Part shown: piece by piece, positions 1 to 52,610 of the stretch
How positions within the stretch are numbered: the first letter of the stretch is position 1
Layout of the letters: the number at the start of each line of letters is the position of its first letter
NCBI GenBank assembly: GCA_947629325.1
Contig: CANRDE010000001.1
Location: 4,028-68,027 of the forward strand
From: an uncultured Bacilli bacterium
GTDB lineage: Bacteria; Bacillota_I; Bacilli_A; RF39; UBA660
Direction: 5' to 3'
DNA length: 64,000 nt
The notes under the pieces: model-generated
Told to the model about the DNA's origin: nothing
Database searches by the model: none
Seen by the model: only the letters and a program-made list of their open reading frames with translations
Position numbers and translations under genes: made by a program

Positions 1-1087
1 TTTTATAGATTCTGCTAAAGACAATGAAAAAGAAAAAATACAAACCTTTACTGCTAAATTAATAGCTACTGGAGATGGCTTAGCTCATCCAGCTGTCTAT
101 AACTCAGGATATAATAAAGAAACTAATTCTTATGATTTTAGTGATATGTTAGCTTTTACTAAAGAAAAACTTAAAGGCTATGACATAAAATACTATAATC
201 AAGAAACTATTTTTGATGATTCTAAAAGTTATAGTGGATATCCTACGTTTAATACTCCCAGTGGGTTTGGAACAAGTATGCTAGCTGCTGGTTTTAATTT
301 AGTATCACTAGCGACCAATCATTCTATGGATAGAGGCAGCGAAAGTGCCAAAGCAAGTGCTAAATGGTGGGAAGAGCAAAAAAATATTTTAGCTACCGGG
401 ATGGCTTCTACACCCGAAAAAAGAAATGAACATAAAATTATGAATGCCAATGGAATAACTTATACGATGTTATCATATACCTATGGAACTAATGGAATAC
501 CAGTTACAGAAGATTATACAGTTAATTTATTTAATGAAGAACAAGTAAAAGCCGACATAGCCGCAGTAAGAGATAAGGTTGATGTTTTAATTGTAGCTAT
601 GCACTGGGGAATTGAATATCAACAAAATGCTACTGAAATTCAAAAGCAACAAGCAAAATTTTTAGCTGATAATGGGGTTGATATTGTATTAGGGACTCAC
701 TCTCATTGTATAGAACCATGGGAATGGATAGATGATACCGTAGTATTCTACTCTTTTGGCAATTTTGTTTCTAACCAAATGGATTTAACTAATCCCATGC
801 AAAAAAAGATTGCGGTTATTGGAATGTTTGCCACATTAGATATAACTAAAACAGTAGACACGGAACAAAATACAACTACTATAAAAATAGATAATATTGG
901 AGCCGACTTAAATTATTCTTATAAATTTTACAACAAAGACAAAGGCAAATATGATTTTTTAGTAATCCCCTTTAGTAAAATGGAAGCCCAATATTTAAAT
1001 AATTACGAAAGTATTTATAATGAATTTAGTGCAGTTTTAAAAAAGTATGACTCGAATATAAATATTGAGCCCTTGCCAATATCCTAA
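1..1087 (+). CDS. CapA/PgsA-family metallophosphatase (poly-gamma-glutamate synthesis-like), 5'-partial
   Basis: The frame stays open from nt 2 into the listed ORF. Motifs MHWGIEY, GTHSHCIEP and YSFGNF are typical of the CapA family. The gene runs off the window start. Confidence 0.65.
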   Translation, partial: FIDSAKDNEKEKIQTFTAKLIATGDGLAHPAVYNSGYNKETNSYDFSDMLAFTKEKLKGYDIKYYNQETIFDDSKSYSGYPTFNTPSGFGTSMLAAGFNLVSLATNHSMDRGSESAKASAKWWEEQKNILATGMASTPEKRNEHKIMNANGITYTMLSYTYGTNGIPVTEDYTVNLFNEEQVKADIAAVRDKVDVLIVAMHWGIEYQQNATEIQKQQAKFLADNGVDIVLGTHSHCIEPWEWIDDTVVFYSFGNFVSNQMDLTNPMQKKIAVIGMFATLDITKTVDTEQNTTTIKIDNIGADLNYSYKFYNKDKGKYDFLVIPFSKMEAQYLNNYESIYNEFSAVLKKYDSNINIEPLPIS

Positions 1088-40116: not shown

Positions 40117-41310
40117 TTATTTTTGTTCTTTAGAATTTTTTTTAAGTGTTAAGTTTGGAATTATTTTTCGAGTATTTATTTCTTCATTTGGCATATTTTC
40201 TACTACTTTTATTAAATCAGTAACAAACTGATCTTTATTATTTTCTTTTTTATTGATTATTCCTTCTATTAAATCATTAAAATGAGGATTGAAAGAAATA
40301 CATTGATTATTTTCTAAATATATTTCTAGTTTTAATTCTCTACCTAATATCATTTTAGAAAGATTATTAAAAGTTTTATACAAACTTAAATTTTTTAAAA
40401 CTAAACTCTTTAAATATTCATACATTCTTTCTTTTTCATCTTCAGAAGTTAAGACTTGTTTTAATGCTAATAAATCTTCTTTACTTCCCGCAATAATTTT
40501 AACTAATTTAAACGCTACTTCTAAATTTTCTCCTAACAAAAGATACGTGCTTCTTAAATCTATAATATCTTCTATACCATTTATTGCTTTGGCCATTTCT
40601 AATGCGGCATCATAATCCACTATTGGTCCTTTTTCATAATACCTTAAAATACATTTGGCATTAAATTCTTGAGGAGATTCTTTTAAAATTTGAACAAATG
40701 ACAGAATAAAATTTAAATCAACCCTATTTTCGTTATGCAAAAAAACACTTATTAAAAATATACTAATATATTCAGAATTAAATTCTTGTTTAGTATCTTT
40801 TAAGATATTAGCCAATAATAAACTTATACCTGATTTTAAAATATTTTCATTTATTAAAATGTTACTAATTTTATAACCATTAAAACTACCTTTTACAGTA
40901 CTAACTATTTTAGCCCCCTCTAAAGCAACACCATAATTTATTGCATTAACATCAGTTAATATTTCACATGCTGCTATGGCATTTGCCTCTAAATCTATAG
41001 TATTTATTATTTTTGCTCCTTCTAATGCTATATTTTCCCTAATCGCTTTTTTGTTTAATAAAATATTAACTACATAGTCTCTTTGCATAGAATTACTATT
41101 TTGGAAAATGTTTAAAGCTTCGCATATTTCATCTACTGTTTTATATGGAGAAATAGCAATTTCAATTCCATCTCTTATAAGAGATTCATCTAAATTTTTT
41201 ATTTTAATTAATATTCTATAACTTTTTTGTAATAATTTTTTTAATTTAGTGGGAGGAATATGAAGACCATTAAGTTTATATAGTAATGATAACATTAACT
41301 CTTTTTTCAT
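40117..41310 (-). CDS. repeat protein, paralog A (397 aa) of a three-gene tandem family
   Basis: Contains ~35-aa repeats with core G(I/V)ALEGAKI(I/V)..(S/T)....FN. N- and C-terminal domains are shared with 42757..43767. Confidence 0.6.
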   Translation of the reverse strand: MKKELMLSLLYKLNGLHIPPTKLKKLLQKSYRILIKIKNLDESLIRDGIEIAISPYKTVDEICEALNIFQNSNSMQRDYVVNILLNKKAIRENIALEGAKIINTIDLEANAIAACEILTDVNAINYGVALEGAKIVSTVKGSFNGYKISNILINENILKSGISLLLANILKDTKQEFNSEYISIFLISVFLHNENRVDLNFILSFVQILKESPQEFNAKCILRYYEKGPIVDYDAALEMAKAINGIEDIIDLRSTYLLLGENLEVAFKLVKIIAGSKEDLLALKQVLTSEDEKERMYEYLKSLVLKNLSLYKTFNNLSKMILGRELKLEIYLENNQCISFNPHFNDLIEGIINKKENNKDQFVTDLIKVVENMPNEEINTRKIIPNLTLKKNSKEQK

Positions 41311-41434
41311 TATTTATCTCCTTATCTTAGCCAGTATTATATCATATTTTTTTATTAGTAAACATTTAGTCCCCTCTAATTTTAGTATAAAATAAATTAA
41401 AAATTACTACAATCAAAAATTAAAGAAAAGTTAA

Positions 41435-42745
41435 TCATTTTTCCGTATTATCTGATTTTCTGTTTTCTCGGATTAATTTTAAAGCTATATCACAAGAAGA
41501 AATATTTTGATCCGGCATATTTTCAACTACTTTTATTATATCAGATATTGCATCACTATTAGTTTTCCTACTTGCTTTTGATTCTTGATCTAATCTTATT
41601 TCTTCATTCAACAAAGATTTGGCTAAGATATTAGCAGTTAAAATAAAGTGAGGATTTTCTAAAACTAAATTTCTTAAATATAAATATATTTCTGTCCTCT
41701 TTTCGCTAGAATTTAATTCGCTTTTTAAATTATCTAAATCCTTTTTTGATCCCATTAATATTTTTATCATATTAAAAGATAAAAGAGACTCTTGAGACAA
41801 TAAATATACATAATTATAATTTACTTGGTGAAATTCAAACATTCTAGCCGTCTTTAATACCTCCATCGGATTAATAATGGAAAGCATTTTAAAAAGTTTA
41901 ACAACACAGCGAGCTGCATTTGGATTTAAACAATTATTAACAATTTTAACCCCTTCCAAAGCAATACCACTGGTGATAGCCATATTATTTCTTAAAATAT
42001 CATACCCGCACTCTGCATTATATGGATTCAAAGATTTTGCTATAATTTGAGCCGCATCTAAAGCAATTCCCGCTTTTATTAAATTTTCATTATTTAAAAT
42101 ATTTTTGATAAAAAAGGCATTAAATTCATTTTGAGACCGACTAATTATTTTAGCCCCAGAAATAGCTAAAGCAGCTTTATTCATTTTTTCATCAATTAAA
42201 AAATAATAAATATATTTTGCTTGAAATTCTTCTGAAGCTTGACTAAGTATTTTAACTCCTTCCATATTGATAGTATTAACTTCTTTAAATAACAAATATT
42301 TTAAAAGGTAATAAGCATTAGATATATTAATAGTTTCATTAATTAATTTAGCATACTTTAAAGCAATTCCCGCCTGCAAAAACGATTTGTTTTGTAAAGC
42401 TTCAGTAACAAATCGCGCATTAAAAGTTTGCTTAGATGATCTTATTAGATAAGCCCCTTCTAATGCTAGTCCCATTTTTATAATATTTTCATCTTGCAAG
42501 ACGCACCTTATATAACATCTATTAGTTGTGGATTGCTTTAATATTCGCAAAGCTTCTAAAATAGTATTAATATTATCATAAGGGGCTAAGATTATTTTAA
42601 CACTATCTTCTATTAGGGACTCTTCCATGTTATTTAATTCTCTTAATAATAATTCTTCCTTAGTTAGCAAAATCTCGACATCGTCAACATTAATATGTAA
42701 TTTTTGCATCTTTTTTAACAAAGACAAAATTATTTCTTTTTTCAT
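41435..42745 (-). CDS. repeat protein, paralog B (436 aa), five repeat units
   Basis: Same architecture as paralog A but more divergent. Repeats GLALEGAYLI, GIALKYAKLI, ALAISGAKII, GIALDAAQII, GIALEGVKIV. Confidence 0.6.
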   Translation of the reverse strand: MKKEIILSLLKKMQKLHINVDDVEILLTKEELLLRELNNMEESLIEDSVKIILAPYDNINTILEALRILKQSTTNRCYIRCVLQDENIIKMGLALEGAYLIRSSKQTFNARFVTEALQNKSFLQAGIALKYAKLINETINISNAYYLLKYLLFKEVNTINMEGVKILSQASEEFQAKYIYYFLIDEKMNKAALAISGAKIISRSQNEFNAFFIKNILNNENLIKAGIALDAAQIIAKSLNPYNAECGYDILRNNMAITSGIALEGVKIVNNCLNPNAARCVVKLFKMLSIINPMEVLKTARMFEFHQVNYNYVYLLSQESLLSFNMIKILMGSKKDLDNLKSELNSSEKRTEIYLYLRNLVLENPHFILTANILAKSLLNEEIRLDQESKASRKTNSDAISDIIKVVENMPDQNISSCDIALKLIRENRKSDNTEK

Positions 42746-42756
42746 ATAAACCTTTT

Positions 42757-43767
42757 TTAATTACCTTGATTATCAAAAGGATTTTTAAGAGTTAATTGGA
42801 GCTCATCAGGCATATTAATAGATGCTTTTATTAAGTTTGCAACATCAGGATTAATAGGAGTAATATATCTAATAAATTTTGCTTCGATAATTATTTCTCT
42901 ACCTAATATAATTTTAGAAAGATTATTAAAAGTTTTATACAAATTTAAATTTTTTAAAACTACACTTTTTAAATATTCATACATTCTTTCTTTTTCATCT
43001 TCAGAAATTAAGACTTGTTTTAAAGCTATTAAATCTTCTTTTCTTCCTGCAATAATTCCAATTAATTTAAACGCTACTTCTAAATTTTCTCCTAACAAAA
43101 GATACGTGCTTCTTAAATCTATAAAATCTTCTATACCATTTATCGCTTTGGCCATTTCTAATGTGGCATCATAATCCATTATTGGCCCTTTTTCATAATA
43201 CCTTAATATACATCTAACATTAAATTCTTGAGGAGATGCTTTTAAAATTTGAACAAATGACAGAATAAAATTTAAATCAATATTATTTTCATTAGTCTCA
43301 AAAACTTTTGTTAAAAATTCACATATATAACTAGAATTAACACTTTGTTTAGTATCTTTTAAGATATTTGCCACCATTAAACCAATTCCAGATTTTAATA
43401 TATTTACATTAGTTAAAATACGACTAATATGACTACCATTAAAACTATCTTTTACAGTACTAATTATCTCAGCTCCTTCTAAAGCTATTCCTTTCTTAAT
43501 TGCTTCTTTATTTAATAAAATCATAACTACGTAGTCCCTTTGCATAGGATCACTATTTTGATAAATATTTAAAGCAGTAATTATTTCCTCGGTAGTTTTA
43601 TATGGAGAAGTGGCAATTGCAATTCCTTCTTCTATAAGAGGCTCATCTAAATTATTTATTTTAATTAATACTTCACTACTTCTTTGCATTAATTTTTTTA
43701 ATGTAATAGGTGAAAAATTATAACCTTGCAATTTATTTAATAAAGATACTATTAATTCTTTTTTCAT
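42757..43767 (-). CDS. repeat protein, paralog C (336 aa)
   Basis: Near-duplicate of paralog A; long identical nucleotide runs are visible. Only 11 nt separate it from paralog B. Confidence 0.6.
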   Translation of the reverse strand: MKKELIVSLLNKLQGYNFSPITLKKLMQRSSEVLIKINNLDEPLIEEGIAIATSPYKTTEEIITALNIYQNSDPMQRDYVVMILLNKEAIKKGIALEGAEIISTVKDSFNGSHISRILTNVNILKSGIGLMVANILKDTKQSVNSSYICEFLTKVFETNENNIDLNFILSFVQILKASPQEFNVRCILRYYEKGPIMDYDATLEMAKAINGIEDFIDLRSTYLLLGENLEVAFKLIGIIAGRKEDLIALKQVLISEDEKERMYEYLKSVVLKNLNLYKTFNNLSKIILGREIIIEAKFIRYITPINPDVANLIKASINMPDELQLTLKNPFDNQGN

Positions 43768-46016: not shown

Positions 46017-46437
46017 TCAACATCTTCTCCTGCAACTCAAACATTATTTCTTCCTCTTCTTTGTTCATATGATCATAACCAAGTAAATGTAAAAGGCCAT
46101 GACAAGTTAAAAAGGCTAGTTCTCTTACTTCACTATGACCATATTCTTTAGCTTGAGCAATCATTCTAGGAATACATATATATATTTCTCCTAAAAATCG
46201 CATATTATTATACACTACTTTATCATTATCTTCAAATGCAAATGAAATTACATCAGTAATTCTATCAATATTACGATAATTTTTATTTAAATATTGGATT
46301 TTTTCGTTATCAACAAATACGATACTAAATGTAGCATTTTTAACTTTCTCATGTTTTAAAGTGCGTTTAATTAAATCATCTAAATAGCCATAATCTTTAC
46401 TATAACCATATTCATTTGTTATTTTATAATCTATCAT
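45988..46437 (-). CDS. ybeY: rRNA maturation endoribonuclease YbeY
   Basis: HxxxHxxGxxH zinc motif, seen as HGLLHLLGYDH. Confidence 0.9.
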   Translation of the reverse strand: MIDYKITNEYGYSKDYGYLDDLIKRTLKHEKVKNATFSIVFVDNEKIQYLNKNYRNIDRITDVISFAFEDNDKVVYNNMRFLGEIYICIPRMIAQAKEYGHSEVRELAFLTCHGLLHLLGYDHMNKEEEEIMFELQEKMLNEDERTKKE

Positions 46438-47063
46438 TTAAATATAACTCCCCAATACCCCAATATATATACGGCAAATAACAATATTAATACAAGGGAA
46501 ATAATATTATAAAATAATTCACTTTTAAAAATATCAGGTAAGTGACGATGAATAGCACTTAGACCAATGTATAGCAAATAACCACCTACACCACCAATTA
46601 AATTTAAAATTATATCATCAATATCAAATGATCTACCAATTTGCAATTGAACAAATTCTACGGCAATACTAGTCATTAAAGTTGTTATAATTATAGGCCA
46701 GATTTTTTTCGGATTAACATAAACTCCTATTAAATAACCAAATGGTAAAAAAATTAATATATTGCCAAAAACATTATAATTAAACATTTGAGTACCAAAT
46801 TTATACCGCATTATTTCTGAGAAAGGAATAATATTTACTCCTCCACTACTATTTATCTCCGTCATAGTTAAGATTTCAAATAAAAGCCAAATATAAATTA
46901 TAGAAATCAAATAACTTAATTCTTTATATAAACAAAATCTTTCACGATGATTACGCAAATAAAAAAATCGGATTAAGACAATTGCTACTATAAAAACCAC
47001 TAACATGGGCCAAATATTATTGAACACTTTCTGGATTAGATTGGACATTTGGAACCTCCTCAA
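46434..47063 (-). CDS. VanZ-family membrane protein
   Basis: Four TM helices. Motifs NIIPF and RSFDIDDIILNLIGGVGGY are typical of VanZ-like proteins. Confidence 0.65.
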   Translation of the reverse strand: MRRFQMSNLIQKVFNNIWPMLVVFIVAIVLIRFFYLRNHRERFCLYKELSYLISIIYIWLLFEILTMTEINSSGGVNIIPFSEIMRYKFGTQMFNYNVFGNILIFLPFGYLIGVYVNPKKIWPIIITTLMTSIAVEFVQLQIGRSFDIDDIILNLIGGVGGYLLYIGLSAIHRHLPDIFKSELFYNIISLVLILLFAVYILGYWGVIFK

Positions 47064-48470: not shown

Positions 48471-48908
48471 CTATTTACTTAGTCTTTCTTTAACAATTGT
48501 ACTTACTTTTGTCATATCAGCATTATTTAATTTTTCATTTACATATTTCATTATTAATCCCATCTCTTTCATACTACTAGGATTAATTTCTTGAAAAGCT
48601 TCATCAATAACTCTTTTAATGTCTTCCATAGAAGCTTCTTCCGGTAAGTAACTATTTATAATAGCTATTTCTTTTCTTAAATTATCAGCAGTTTCTATTT
48701 TACCTAAATTTTCGTATTCCATTATAGAATCTTTTCTTTGTTTAATTTGTTTTTTCAAAACATTTATAACAACATCATCGGTTAATTCTTTTTTGTTATT
48801 AAGTGCCTCTAATTGCAAAGCACTTTTTATCATTCGAAGCACTGATAATTGAAATTTATCGCCACTCTTAAGGGCATTTACTAAATCAGTATTTATTTTT
48901 TCAAACAT
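48471..48908 (-). CDS. GatB/YqeY-domain protein
   Basis: 145-aa YqeY-family sequence, in the conserved position after rpsU. Confidence 0.85.
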   Translation of the reverse strand: MFEKINTDLVNALKSGDKFQLSVLRMIKSALQLEALNNKKELTDDVVINVLKKQIKQRKDSIMEYENLGKIETADNLRKEIAIINSYLPEEASMEDIKRVIDEAFQEINPSSMKEMGLIMKYVNEKLNNADMTKVSTIVKERLSK

Positions 48909-48919
48909 AAAATCTCTCC

Positions 48920-49105
48920 TTAATTATGATTTCTTTTGTGAGAATTTTTTATGCCTTCTTCTTTCTTAATTCTTCTTTCAACTCCTGGTTTAACATGGAA
49001 TTTTTTCTTTTTTAGTTCTGAAGGGACACCACTTCTCGCAACTTTTACTTTGAATTTTTTCAAAGCCATATCAATGTTGCCATTTTGAACTACAACCTTT
49101 GTCAC
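48920..49105 (-). CDS. rpsU: 30S ribosomal protein S21
   Basis: Basic 61-aa protein matching S21. GTG start with an AAGGGAGGG RBS. Confidence 0.9.
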   Translation of the reverse strand: MTKVVVQNGNIDMALKKFKVKVARSGVPSELKKKKFHVKPGVERRIKKEEGIKNSHKRNHN

Positions 49106-49138
49106 AAATTCGCCCTCCCTTCGCTTTTAACTGAGCCT

Positions 49139-49167
49139 ATTATACCACTTACCTTTAAATTTGACAA
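49139..49167 (-). promoter_or_regulatory. sigma-A-type promoter of rpsU
   Basis: Minus strand reads TTGTCA, 17 nt, TATAAT, about 35 nt upstream of the rpsU RBS. Confidence 0.55.
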
Positions 49168-49213
49168 CAACAAAAGCAATCATCTGTAAAAAATGTTGTA
49201 AATTAACGATTAA

Positions 49214-49366
49214 TTAACAATAATTTTTGGCAGCAATTCTTCTGATTGCACTTCCAACCGTTTTGCCTAAATCAAGAATTGTATTTATAAGTCTTGAAAC
49301 TGAATTTAATAAGGTTGAAGAAATCCCTCCACCTTGAATCAATAATAATTCTTCGTTTGTTAACAT
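49214..49366 (-). CDS. double-glycine-leader bacteriocin precursor peptide B (50 aa)
   Basis: Unlisted ORF MLTNEELLLIQGG|GISSTLLNSVSRLINTILDLGKTVGSAIRRIAAKNYC. The leader fits the LSxxELxxIxGG consensus (-12 L, -8 E, -7 L, -4 I, GG). AGGAGGT RBS. The mature peptide has a GxxxG motif and a C-terminal Cys. Confidence 0.7.
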   Translation of the reverse strand: MLTNEELLLIQGGGISSTLLNSVSRLINTILDLGKTVGSAIRRIAAKNYC

Positions 49367-49376
49367 TTTAACCTCC

Positions 49377-49520
49377 TTAATTACATTTTTTAGGATTAAT
49401 TATGCCGTCAATCACGCCAATAACAAAAACTGCGGCTGCTCCTATAATACCAGCAATCAATTTTAAACTAACTGCGCCACCTTCTACTGCTAACATTTCT
49501 TCATTATTTAAAATTTTCAT
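49377..49520 (-). CDS. double-glycine-leader bacteriocin precursor peptide A (47 aa)
   Basis: Unlisted ORF MKILNNEEMLAVEGG|AVSLKLIAGIIGAAAVFVIGVIDGIINPKKCN with an AGGAGG RBS. The mature peptide is hydrophobic, carries GxxxG motifs and has a C-terminal Cys. Confidence 0.7.
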   Translation of the reverse strand: MKILNNEEMLAVEGGAVSLKLIAGIIGAAAVFVIGVIDGIINPKKCN

Positions 49521-49531
49521 TATTACCTCCT

Positions 49532-49945
49532 CTATTTAAATAACTCTAAAATAAATTGCCAAATAGTTTGTTTACCATAATAAATTTCCACATCTCCTAT
49601 TTCATTATTATAAAAATCTTTTTCTAAAACTAAAAATATATCTTGATAGATAATATTTTTATCTAAACTATATTTTTCATATGAGTTAATGGTATACTCT
49701 GTTTTAGTACCATTGAAAGTCAAAGTATTTTGTTTTTTTATTTTATCAGAGAGTCTATTTTCTATTTGTATATGTAATAAATGACTTTCATAAATTCCAT
49801 AACATTTAATCTTTTTATCAATATAAAAGAAGTTGGCAATCACAATGAAGAAAACAATAAATGAAACTCCTATTACTAAAAGATAAATATATGGCCTTTG
49901 AACTAAATTTCTAAGTTTATAATAATTAATTTTGAAGTATTCCAT
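49532..49945 (-). CDS. small single-TM protein (137 aa); candidate immunity or truncated secretion-accessory protein
   Basis: N-terminal TM helix YIYLLVIGVSFIVFFIVIANFFYI. Overlaps the 3' end of the ABC transporter and sits directly upstream of the two peptide genes. Confidence 0.45.
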   Translation of the reverse strand: MEYFKINYYKLRNLVQRPYIYLLVIGVSFIVFFIVIANFFYIDKKIKCYGIYESHLLHIQIENRLSDKIKKQNTLTFNGTKTEYTINSYEKYSLDKNIIYQDIFLVLEKDFYNNEIGDVEIYYGKQTIWQFILELFK

Positions 49946-51986
49946 TTTGAACTCCTATGTCAATAATTTTGCTAAAACTTTTAGTTTGATTTTTATGAGA
50001 AATATAAATTATTGTTTTATCATTAAAATAATTTTTTATATTTTTTATGATCTTGTTTTCTAATTTAAAATCCACTTCACTTAACGCTTCATCCAAAATA
50101 ATAATATTGGCTTTCTTTAAAAGGCCTCTGGCTAAAATTATTCTTTGTTTTTCGCCACCTGAAACGTTCTGAGAATTTGGTTCAAGCAAAGAATTAAAAC
50201 GAAGTGTTTTTTTAGCTACAATCTCCTCAATACAGCAAATTTGACATATATCATTAAACAATTGCTCTTCAACTTCTCTATCAATTAAAATGTTTTCTTT
50301 GATAGTTCCAGTAAAAAGTTCTTCATTTTGGGATACATATAAAATATTATTTCTGATTGTTCCTATATCTATATCTTTGATGTTTTGATTACCAATATAT
50401 ATCTCCCCTTCATTTGAAACATATTCCTTATAAATTAGTTTACAAATGGTACTTTTTCCCGCTCCAGAAGGTCCATTTAACAAAACATGATCTCCCTGTT
50501 TGATTTGCAAAGTCAAATTTTTTAATATGCTTTTATAATTATTATATGAATAGTAGACATTAGCAAAAACAATATCACCATCTAAATAACATCCTTTATC
50601 ATCAATATTTTCTTCTTCAATATTTATAAATTCGGTTAACTTTGTAAAAGTTGCTTTAATAAAATTATATTTAGGTAACAAGCTAATAATATTACGCACA
50701 GGATCAATACAATAACCAAGAATAATATTAAATGTGAATAAATCAATGATAGATAAATTGCCTTGATAAATATTCCAAAACCCACAAGAATTAATCAAAA
50801 AGAAACAAAGTTCTAATAAGAAATCTTTACCTAAATTGGTTAGGTTGAAATATTTATTAAAATTATAAGTATTAAATAAGTATTTAGATAAACACTTTTC
50901 TATTTTTTCTAATATAATGTTATTTATATTTAAATTTTTAATACTATCTAACATCGTAATGTCTTCTACTATCATACTATTAAAATTGGTTTGATAATTA
51001 ATATTTTCTAAAATTCTTTGATATAAACTCTTACTAACCAAAAAACCATATAAAACGTATAAAACAATAAAGAGAAATAAAATAAAAGACAAGTTTTTAT
51101 TTATTATAAATAAAATAACTACAGTTATAAGTATCATTAAAGAGTTTACAAGATAAGAAACAAATATTTCGGAAAACAAGCTTTTTATATTAGCTAATTC
51201 ATCAATCCTTGTTACTATTTCTCCTACACTTCTTGTCTTGATACTATTAGAAGGAAGGTAAAAAATATGATGTAAAAACTCTGGATACAAATAAACATCA
51301 ATTAAATTACCCAAATGATTTTCATAATATTCTCGAATATATAAACTTAAAATTTTTAATAAAGTAAATATTGCAAATATTAAAATGAGCCATTTAAAAT
51401 ATTTATAATTTTCATTTAATAAATTGCTTCCTACTTTCAAATAATAACTACAAATTATAGCGATAATAGTCCAAATTATACTACTCATAACTATTTTCAT
51501 TATTAGAAACTTTTCCTGATTTAATATTTGTAAAAATAAGTTATTTATAGTAAGACCTTTGTCCATTTTAATAATTTTACCACGCGGTTTTACTAAAATA
51601 AGATGACCAGTAAATAAACTATTAAAAATAGTTAAAGATATTTTTTTATTTCCAACACTTGGATCCATTAAATATACAATGTTGTTTTTTACCTCTTTAA
51701 CTACAACAAAATGTTCTAAACCATTCTCTAAAGTTAAATGAGCTATTAAAGGAAATTCCAATTCACTTTTTGTAATGTCGCGCTCCAAAATCCCCAATGA
51801 ATCAAATCCCCATTTTTTAAAAGCATTTACAATATGGTAAGCATTAGTTCCATTTTTATCGGTAAAAGTATCTTCTCTTAATTTTTCTAGAGTCACATAA
51901 CCATTATAAAAAATAAATAACCATTGCATACAACATATACCACAATCTTTCAAATCTTTTTGTATAACAGGTTTAACTTTCATCAT
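49926..51986 (-). CDS. bacteriocin-processing ABC transporter with N-terminal C39 peptidase domain
   Basis: C39 catalytic motifs QKDLKDCGICC (Cys), LEHFVVV (His) and LMDP (Asp). Six-TM domain. Walker A GPSGAGKST, signature VSGGEKQR and Walker B IIILDE. Confidence 0.9.
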   Translation of the reverse strand: MMKVKPVIQKDLKDCGICCMQWLFIFYNGYVTLEKLREDTFTDKNGTNAYHIVNAFKKWGFDSLGILERDITKSELEFPLIAHLTLENGLEHFVVVKEVKNNIVYLMDPSVGNKKISLTIFNSLFTGHLILVKPRGKIIKMDKGLTINNLFLQILNQEKFLIMKIVMSSIIWTIIAIICSYYLKVGSNLLNENYKYFKWLILIFAIFTLLKILSLYIREYYENHLGNLIDVYLYPEFLHHIFYLPSNSIKTRSVGEIVTRIDELANIKSLFSEIFVSYLVNSLMILITVVILFIINKNLSFILFLFIVLYVLYGFLVSKSLYQRILENINYQTNFNSMIVEDITMLDSIKNLNINNIILEKIEKCLSKYLFNTYNFNKYFNLTNLGKDFLLELCFFLINSCGFWNIYQGNLSIIDLFTFNIILGYCIDPVRNIISLLPKYNFIKATFTKLTEFINIEEENIDDKGCYLDGDIVFANVYYSYNNYKSILKNLTLQIKQGDHVLLNGPSGAGKSTICKLIYKEYVSNEGEIYIGNQNIKDIDIGTIRNNILYVSQNEELFTGTIKENILIDREVEEQLFNDICQICCIEEIVAKKTLRFNSLLEPNSQNVSGGEKQRIILARGLLKKANIIILDEALSEVDFKLENKIIKNIKNYFNDKTIIYISHKNQTKSFSKIIDIGVQNGILQN

Positions 51987-52115
51987 TCTTTCCTCCCTTC
52001 ACTACTATTATTAGCTTCAACTAAAACTATTTCCTTTTAAATATAATAAATTTTTTTTAAAAGGTATTTTTTAGCTTTTTAAACATAATATTAAGTAGCG
52101 ATAAAGGAGAGCTAT

Positions 52116-52610
52116 ATGATAAACAAACAAAATTTATGGTTTATTACTTTATTTTCTTTAATACTTATCTTAGGAATTTATTATATTAGTATTGATGATG
52201 AGGTGGCAAGTGTGCTTAAAGCCGAAGATACTTCTAATGCCAATGAAGTTATTGAGATTAATGAATCTGATGTATTAGTGGCCTTAGAAATAGAAAATGA
52301 CGAGGAAAAGCAAGCCCTTATGGAAGAATATCAAAATATCCTTTTAGACACGGGAAGTACTTTAGAGGAAAAAAATGTTGCTTATGAAAATATGCAAAAA
52401 TTAAATAATTCCAAAGCCGAAGAAACTAAAGTGAAAAAATTAATTAAAGAAAAATTTGATTTAAATTCTTTTGTAAAAATTAAAGATAATACAATTAGTA
52501 TTACGGTGGCTTCAAAGGAACACAATACGGAAAAAGCTAATTCTATTATCCGAAGTGTGCAAGAATTATATGAATCAAAAATGTATATAACAGTAAAATT
52601 TAATAAATAA
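52116..52610 (+). CDS. SpoIIIAH-like membrane protein (tentative)
   Basis: N-terminal TM helix, an acidic linker, and a C-terminal segment NTISITVASKEHNTEKANSIIRSVQ that resembles the SpoIIIAH/YscJ-like ring-building domain. Confidence 0.4.
   Translation: MINKQNLWFITLFSLILILGIYYISIDDEVASVLKAEDTSNANEVIEINESDVLVALEIENDEEKQALMEEYQNILLDTGSTLEEKNVAYENMQKLNNSKAEETKVKKLIKEKFDLNSFVKIKDNTISITVASKEHNTEKANSIIRSVQELYESKMYITVKFNK

Follow-up and report, generated by a model that had tools for sequence, protein, structure and literature searches.

A four-gene cassette upstream of rpsU

The window analyzed here is a stretch of 64,000 nucleotides (64 kb) from an uncultured Bacilli bacterium (assembly GCA_947629325.1, contig CANRDE010000001.1). 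On its minus strand, positions 49214..51986 hold four tightly packed genes, for an ATP-binding cassette (ABC) exporter, a protein of 137 amino acids (aa) and two small peptides, here called pepA and pepB, which together probably make up a class IIb-like two-peptide system. Each of the four genes has a Shine-Dalgarno sequence of its own, and those of pepA and pepB are AGGAGG placed 5-6 nt upstream of the start. The features of the cassette, and the promoter that follows it, are:

49926..51986, minus strand: gene of the exporter, a peptidase-containing ABC transporter (PCAT) of 686 aa by sequence; Shine-Dalgarno GGGAGG at 51997..51992
49532..49945, minus strand: 137-aa open reading frame (ORF), predicted to encode a membrane-anchored beta-barrel protein
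49377..49520, minus strand: pepA precursor, 47 aa; Shine-Dalgarno AGGAGG at 49531..49526
49214..49366, minus strand: pepB precursor, 50 aa; Shine-Dalgarno AGGAGG at 49377..49372
49139..49167, minus strand: rpsU promoter, sigma-70-like (TTGTCA-17-TGnTATAAT), 11 of 12 matches, extended -10

The pepA precursor reads MKILNNEEMLAVEGG (leader) followed by AVSLKLIAGIIGAAAVFVIGVIDGIINPKKCN (mature part), that is, a 15-aa double-glycine leader and a 32-aa mature peptide. The pepB precursor, MLTNEELLLIQGG followed by GISSTLLNSVSRLINTILDLGKTVGSAIRRIAAKNYC, has a 13-aa double-glycine leader, shorter than the usual 15-30, and a 37-aa mature peptide. Recognition by PCATs depends on hydrophobic leader positions such as -4, -7 and -12 (and -15), together with Gly-Gly at -2/-1 (PMC7018657). 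Hydrophobic residues occupy -4, -7 and -12 in both peptides and also -15 in pepA, and a pepB profile matches the leader of CtA, the substrate of PCAT1 (PDB 7s5j). Beyond this leader match no relative of either peptide was found in the PDB. The original prediction, which was made from the sequence of the window, had described both ORFs with these coordinates, leaders and mature lengths, all of which are exact, and with a strong ribosome-binding site on each, as the AGGAGG sequences bear out. It had also called the locus unannotated. This is true of names, as none has been given, but not of the ORFs themselves, both of which were predicted by public gene callers.

Both mature peptides had been described as cationic and amphipathic with GxxxG motifs. 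The motif is present in each (GVIDG in pepA, GKTVG in pepB), but only pepB is amphipathic. Mature pepB has a net charge of +4, and its orthologues have hydrophobic moments (muH) of 0.58-0.77 and net charges of +2 to +5. Mature pepA is hydrophobic and transmembrane-like, with a grand average of hydropathy (GRAVY) of 1.38 and a net charge of +2; the corresponding ranges in its orthologues are 0.8-1.5 and 0 to +3. In alignments of 10-14 orthologues, over which the conservation of the mature peptides was judged, the motif glycines are invariant, and apart from G35, G39 and C46 in pepA and G34, G38 and C50 in pepB every mature position varies. The single Cys of pepA (..NPKKCN) always lies 11 residues past the first Gly of GxxxG and after a Pro or Ser (..DGxxNPKKC). 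In pepB the motif spans mature positions 21-25 and the single Cys is at 37, a register identical in 11 of 11 orthologues. AlphaFold2 (AF2) models pepB as one continuous helix, residues 4-49, running through the GxxxG (predicted local distance difference test score, pLDDT, 77), which, for an isolated peptide, counts as weak evidence. This continuous helix disfavors an alternative prompted by a PDB match of pepB to a designed repeat protein, namely a helical hairpin whose loop would contain the invariant glycines.

The two small ORFs are real genes, since orthologous pairs occur in every related locus and their ratios of nonsynonymous to synonymous substitution rates (dN/dS) are low. For close pairs (Nei-Gojobori method) dN/dS is 0.00-0.20 for pepA and pepB, at dS of 0.15-0.45, and 0.06-0.18 for the ABC gene and the 137-aa gene. 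Purifying selection acts on all four genes, for which dN/dS in close pairs is summarized as 0.05-0.3, and chance or pseudogene ORFs are rejected by the conservation and by dN/dS. The possibility that pepA and pepB are paralogues was also rejected, as hhalign aligns only their leaders.

Against curated families pepA stays below the cut-offs (PF10439, 21.9 vs 27.1 bits; NF038034, 22.4 vs 37; TIGR03949, 18.6 vs 21.5), pepB has nothing below E 0.02 in Pfam or NCBIfam, and the sub-threshold matches of both are driven by the leader. No named bacteriocin matching the window peptides was found in the sources searched, in agreement with the original prediction. Nor does the rest of the 64-kb window contain other double-glycine peptides or pepA-like or pepB-like motifs.

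The ATG of the 137-aa ORF overlaps the stop codon of the ABC gene by 20 nt, and the gaps that follow are 11 nt (137-aa ORF to pepA) and 10 nt (pepA to pepB). Because of this overlap and these short gaps, the four genes would be expected to form an operon with a single transcript. The rpsU promoter sits in the 108-nt spacer between pepB and rpsU. Terminator-like sites are absent from 48800..52400, so that no intrinsic terminator separates pepB from rpsU. Upstream of the cassette, a lone SpoIIIAH-like gene (52116..52610, plus strand; PF12685, E 9e-9) is divergently oriented and highly conserved among relatives; within its coding region lies a strong sigma-70-like match (52209..52180, minus strand, 11 of 12) that could be the cassette promoter.

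The exporter and the 137-aa protein

The ABC protein has an N-terminal C39 domain, an exporter domain with six transmembrane helices and a nucleotide-binding domain, as recognized by Pfam (PF03412 Peptidase_C39, E 4e-29; PF00664 ABC_membrane, 3e-26; PF00005 ABC_tran, 2.5e-27). PCAT1 of Clostridium thermocellum (4ry2) aligns with it from end to end (E 5e-96), and pneumococcal ComA (8hf4) aligns over the full length (E 1e-81). Gln9, Cys15, His92 and Asp108 align with the oxyanion Gln and the Cys/His/Asp triad of PCAT1 at 4ry2 SEQRES positions 18/24/102/118, which we take to be Gln15/Cys21/His99/Asp115 of PCAT1. The intact triad claimed earlier is thus upheld by the alignment, and the catalytic Cys, the loss of which had been named as an objection, is in place. 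Walker A (GPSGAGKST), signature (VSGGEKQR) and Walker B (ILDEA) sequences are readable in the translation. The protein scores below the cut-offs of the NCBIfam models TIGR01193 (bacteriocin_ABC; 345.8 bits, cut-off 523.85) and NF045998 (Mbov_0121 family; 307.6 vs 500), and by its sequence it is a divergent member of the PCATs. Its C39 domain would recognize the pre-peptides by their double-glycine leaders and cut them after Gly-Gly, and the mature peptides would then be exported.

The peptide genes had been placed directly downstream of the ABC gene. They do lie downstream, but not directly, as the conserved 137-aa ORF (49532..49945) stands between. This ORF had been overlooked, as had the absence of an immunity gene and the single invariant Cys of each peptide. 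The 137-aa protein has no sequence match in Pfam, NCBIfam or the PDB. A word search with the single sequence returned only the protein itself, while an alignment-based search for homologues gave 57 clusters, nearly all of about 137 aa and without names. None of these 57 members matches the HlyD families of Pfam, even at E up to 10, and a search for sequence similarity with solved structures likewise gave nothing. AlphaFold2 run with the alignment gives a confident model (pLDDT 87.7), in which an N-terminal helix (residues 8-37) is followed by a six-stranded barrel that includes one short helix, and then by a C-terminal helix; it has neither an alpha-helical hairpin nor a lipoyl domain. Foldseek returned nothing significant for this model, and membrane fusion proteins were listed among other small barrels.

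We consider it rather probable that the 137-aa protein is a minimal export accessory of the ComB/LcnD-like (HlyD/membrane-fusion) type, reduced to anchor and barrel. The N-terminal anchor, the modeled beta-barrel and the gene next to that of the ABC protein are the features by which ComB/LcnD-type accessories are recognized. We make this assignment on three grounds: the product carries a membrane anchor, its gene is translationally coupled to that of the ABC protein, and Gram-positive PCATs act alone or with no more than one accessory protein (PMC7018657). Judging from its fold and position, the 137-aa protein would serve the exporter as a stripped-down accessory of this kind.

Inheritance of the cassette and the wider pepB family

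With the window ABC protein as query, a scan of one genome per species gave nine loci. Their ABC proteins share 59-65% identity with that of the window, and all nine have the four genes in the window order. These loci are labeled uncultured Bacilli from rabbit gut, plus one labeled "uncultured Mycoplasma". Look-ups of exact proteins added further relatives (L023, L027 and L033-L037). In the window the cassette lies directly upstream of rpsU-yqeY, and it does so too in at least 13 distinct relatives (L002-L009, L023, L027, L033-L036). The distant loci L030 and L032, in which pepB is about 50% identical, likewise precede rpsU-yqeY; L001 and L031 end too early to show the downstream neighbor of pepB. 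Its surroundings vary to some extent: L023 has a sigma-factor gene in place of the SpoIIIAH-like upstream neighbor, and L033 and L034 hold the cassette without the yabP-yqfD neighbors. In L037 an epimerase rather than rpsU follows pepB. The sugar epimerase/VanZ-like cluster after the cassette (L037 5827..6825) shows that a rearrangement can break the rpsU linkage while the cassette is kept.

Sequence divergence of the cassette follows that of its flanks. Identities to the window of 58-65% for the ABC protein run parallel to those of YqfD (59-66%) and YqeY (64-72%). The dS of the cassette equals that of the flanking genes (between L004 and L007, 0.126 for the ABC gene and 0.145 for yqfD), and the GC content is 0.24-0.28 both inside and outside. 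Nothing similar to the cassette DNA or to mature pepB was found among plasmids, and the window lineage has no mobile-element signature. Given the shared rpsU site, the dS, the GC content, the parallel identities and the lack of a plasmid match, the cassette is vertically inherited from a common ancestor and kept by selection. The view that it is an accessory island within conserved core synteny did not survive this comparison, and recent horizontal acquisition is rejected on the same grounds of GC content, dS and plasmids.

The order pepA-then-pepB and the 1:1 pairing of the peptides are retained in every locus examined, including the distant ones and two fused gene calls (P0153 and P0198) in which an A-type precursor directly precedes a B-type one in distant members of the pepB family. 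At the junction in P0153 (..PC TSKKW SI M..) the sequence suggests a TGA stop codon read as Trp by a gene caller using code 4, so that the mycoplasma code may have been used to annotate the genomes of some family members.

Searching 1.84 billion representatives with the pepB profile gave 294 proteins, each standing for a cluster at 50% identity, at E<=1e-3, and 39 at E<=1e-10. With few exceptions their lengths are 49-57 aa, and all of them come from uncultured gut bacteria. Most of the best 150 representatives have a double-glycine leader, GxxxGSxIRR and a Cys 16 residues past the first Gly; when 117 members are aligned, one motif glycine and the Cys show no variation. A scan of metagenome contigs with a single pepB-family protein gave three loci. 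The signatures of the pair are GxxxG-x2-P-x2-C for A and GxxxGSxIRR-x7-C for B. Pfam and NCBIfam have no model for the family, at most 16 of the 117 members giving weak, leader-driven matches, and no member has a name in the sources searched. A new peptide pair as such is not surprising, because double-glycine precursors have already been mined by the thousands from gut metagenomes (PMC12648112).

Two other features of the window may be mentioned. A VanZ-like gene (46434..47063, minus strand; PF04892, E 1.6e-22) lies between yqfD and ybeY and keeps this position in all related loci. Just downstream of recO, three tandem paralogous ORFs of 397, 436 and 336 aa (40117..43767, minus strand) have similar N-termini (MKKEL/I..SLL.KL..) and no Pfam match, and represent an unexplained family expansion.

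Function of the peptide pair and relation to known systems

Two different adjacent peptide genes together with GxxxG motifs are the hallmark of class IIb bacteriocins, in which two helices are pictured as packing through GxxxG in the membrane (PMC2850506). Adjacent peptide genes, double-glycine leaders with a C39-ABC exporter, and a GxxxG in both peptides are all found in the cassette. Because of the invariant GxxxG in both peptides, the transmembrane-like A with the amphipathic and cationic B, the 1:1 pairing and the intact PCAT, we regard the cassette, fixed in the chromosome and inherited vertically, as a probable class IIb-like two-peptide system that would act on membranes, with a presumed antimicrobial activity. 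The two-peptide reading given in the original prediction is thus still the best available one, the bacteriocin function itself being putative.

Outside the cell the hydrophobic A (32 aa) and the amphipathic cationic B (37 aa) would pair in the membrane through their GxxxG motifs in a parallel register, and the pair would permeabilize the membranes of competing close relatives. In a rough geometry, with the tail of B helical and that of A extended past its Pro, both cysteines of a parallel pair come to lie at a similar depth. With one invariant C-terminal cysteine in each peptide, placed at about equal depth, the pair may either form an inter-peptide disulfide or require these residues as free thiols. 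No description of a disulfide-linked two-peptide bacteriocin turned up in a full-text search of the literature.

Several observations weigh against this interpretation. No curated bacteriocin family is matched above cut-off, and it is unusual for bacteriocin loci to be inherited strictly vertically at a single core site. There are no regulator genes near the cassette. The membrane-fusion assignment of the 137-aa protein has no significant support from Foldseek, and small barrels recur in unrelated proteins. For the cysteines, the organisms are gut anaerobes, in which spontaneous extracellular formation of a disulfide is uncertain, and the cassette encodes no thiol oxidoreductase. Finally, the window operon has no immunity gene, the 108-nt spacer between pepB and rpsU containing no further ORF, whereas such a gene is expected, and indeed always present, in class IIb operons (PMC2850506). 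Because of this lack of a dedicated immunity gene, self-protection is unexplained in the window lineage.

A third small ORF of about 52-59 aa does lie between pepB and rpsU in L030 (390..569) and L032 (about 844..1029, probably starting with TTG near 871). Its product combines a hydrophobic helix with the C-terminal sequence YGTxxxG(T/S)xxR...C, with the +16 Gly-to-Cys spacing of pepB, and the L030 ORF, the one compared by hhalign, aligns weakly with pepB (E 0.003). Judged by its sequence, this product may confer immunity as a decoy anchored in the membrane. The window lineage lacks the ORF, and L032 for its part lacks the 137-aa gene.

Could the 137-aa protein itself be the immunity protein, or accessory and immunity protein in one, so that the operon is a canonical class IIb operon? 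We think this unlikely. It is true that its gene is the sole unassigned one of the operon and encodes a membrane-anchored product, that it has evolved together with the peptides and, of the four genes, reaches the highest dN/dS (up to 0.5), that the distant L032, which is without it, has another small membrane ORF, and that accessory proteins may contribute to immunity in class IIb systems (PMC2850506). However, the predicted fold is nearest to the beta-barrels of membrane fusion proteins (not significantly so in Foldseek), and the gene is translationally coupled to the ABC gene instead of standing behind the peptide genes. Known class IIb immunity proteins, moreover, are multi-pass membrane proteins or of the Abi/CAAX type.

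The exported pair might also serve the producer's own biology, as in kin recognition, cell-cell signaling or a developmental, sporulation-linked membrane function, instead of killing. We give some weight to such a non-toxic or kin-directed role because there is no immunity gene and the cassette is retained throughout the lineage, and yet it appears improbable to us. Occupation of the same rpsU-side site by the cassette in so many relatives, with dS like that of core genes and no mobile-element signature in the window lineage, fits this role. Sporulation genes (SpoIIIAH-like, yabP, yqfD) are nearby, and the substrates of PCATs include signals besides toxins (PMC7018657). Yet L033 and L034 keep the cassette without yabP-yqfD, and no histidine kinase, response regulator or Rgg-type receptor is found near it in any locus. 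The window peptides do not match the ComC family (PF03047), so that homology to ComC/BlpC pheromones, an objection foreseen in the original prediction, is not observed. A transmembrane-like peptide of 32 aa and an amphipathic cationic helix, each with GxxxG, have the architecture of a pore-forming pair, unlike known pheromones. Fixation in a lineage does not by itself speak against a bacteriocin either, since pneumococcal CibAB is a lineage-fixed two-peptide bacteriocin used in fratricide.

Less likely still is a combination of these ideas, in which A and B would form a disulfide-linked heterodimer of parallel helices packed through GxxxG and locked by the invariant C-terminal cysteines, exported by the PCAT with the 137-aa protein as a minimal adaptor and having a core function free of an immunity gene, for example, in kin discrimination or sporulation-linked cannibalism; it would then differ from a conventional competitive bacteriocin. 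It is very unlikely that A and B act separately, as one-peptide (class IId-like) bacteriocins that share an exporter: their mature regions are unrelated, only the leaders being aligned by hhalign, and PCAT loci with several bacteriocins are common (PMC7018657), but the strict 1:1 co-occurrence in A-then-B order in every locus including the distant ones, exactly one GxxxG and one Cys as the sole invariant residues of each peptide, and physico-chemical properties that are complementary as in known pairs all speak for one system of two peptides.

If the peptides of this class IIb-like system are active, they define a large family, so far without a name, of bacteriocin-like peptide pairs that can be recognized by a simple sequence signature. 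A PCAT would in that case also be shown to work with a one-domain adaptor of 137 aa, a useful minimal model for the poorly understood accessories of Gram-positive bacteria. With the locus fixed beside rpsU and no immunity gene in it, one may ask how the producer tolerates its own pore-former, or whether the pair is not a weapon.

Pheromones of the ComC/BlpC type have a cognate kinase/regulator, which was found neither in the window nor in any related locus, and a ComC-family sequence, which the window peptides do not match. The window exporter shares with PCAT1 and ComA the full-length collinear alignment and the Gln/Cys/His/Asp active site, and the pepB leader resembles that of the PCAT1 substrate CtA (LTDEELMEMTGG); the exporter nevertheless scores under the TIGR01193 cut-off of NCBIfam. 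PCAT1 needs no accessory protein and ComA uses a full-length ComB, whereas the partner here would be the 137-aa protein. An accessory of the ComB/LcnD type has roughly 450 aa, and the HlyD-type accessories ComB, BlpB, LcnD and RtgB, like the adaptors MacA and Spr0693, have hairpin and lipoyl domains, which the 137-aa protein is missing. The CibAB and blp loci resemble the window locus in their species-wide chromosomal site, their two-peptide double-glycine PCAT substrates and a plausible role in competition among close kin, but they have immunity genes and quorum-sensing regulators, neither of which is present here. With respect to class IIb systems such as lactococcin G, enterocin 1071 and plantaricin EF/JK, the window peptides differ in falling below the cut-offs of NF038034, NF038035, TIGR03949 and PF10439 and in each having an invariant C-terminal Cys at a fixed distance from GxxxG, and the operon differs in being without an immunity gene and in being fixed beside rpsU and vertically inherited instead of strain-variable. 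In both, two adjacent and different peptide genes share an operon and encode precursors with double-glycine leaders, a dedicated C39-ABC exporter serves the pair (its gene lies in the operon here, as it does for lactococcin G), and the mature peptides, of 30-40 aa, each contain GxxxG and a predicted helix.

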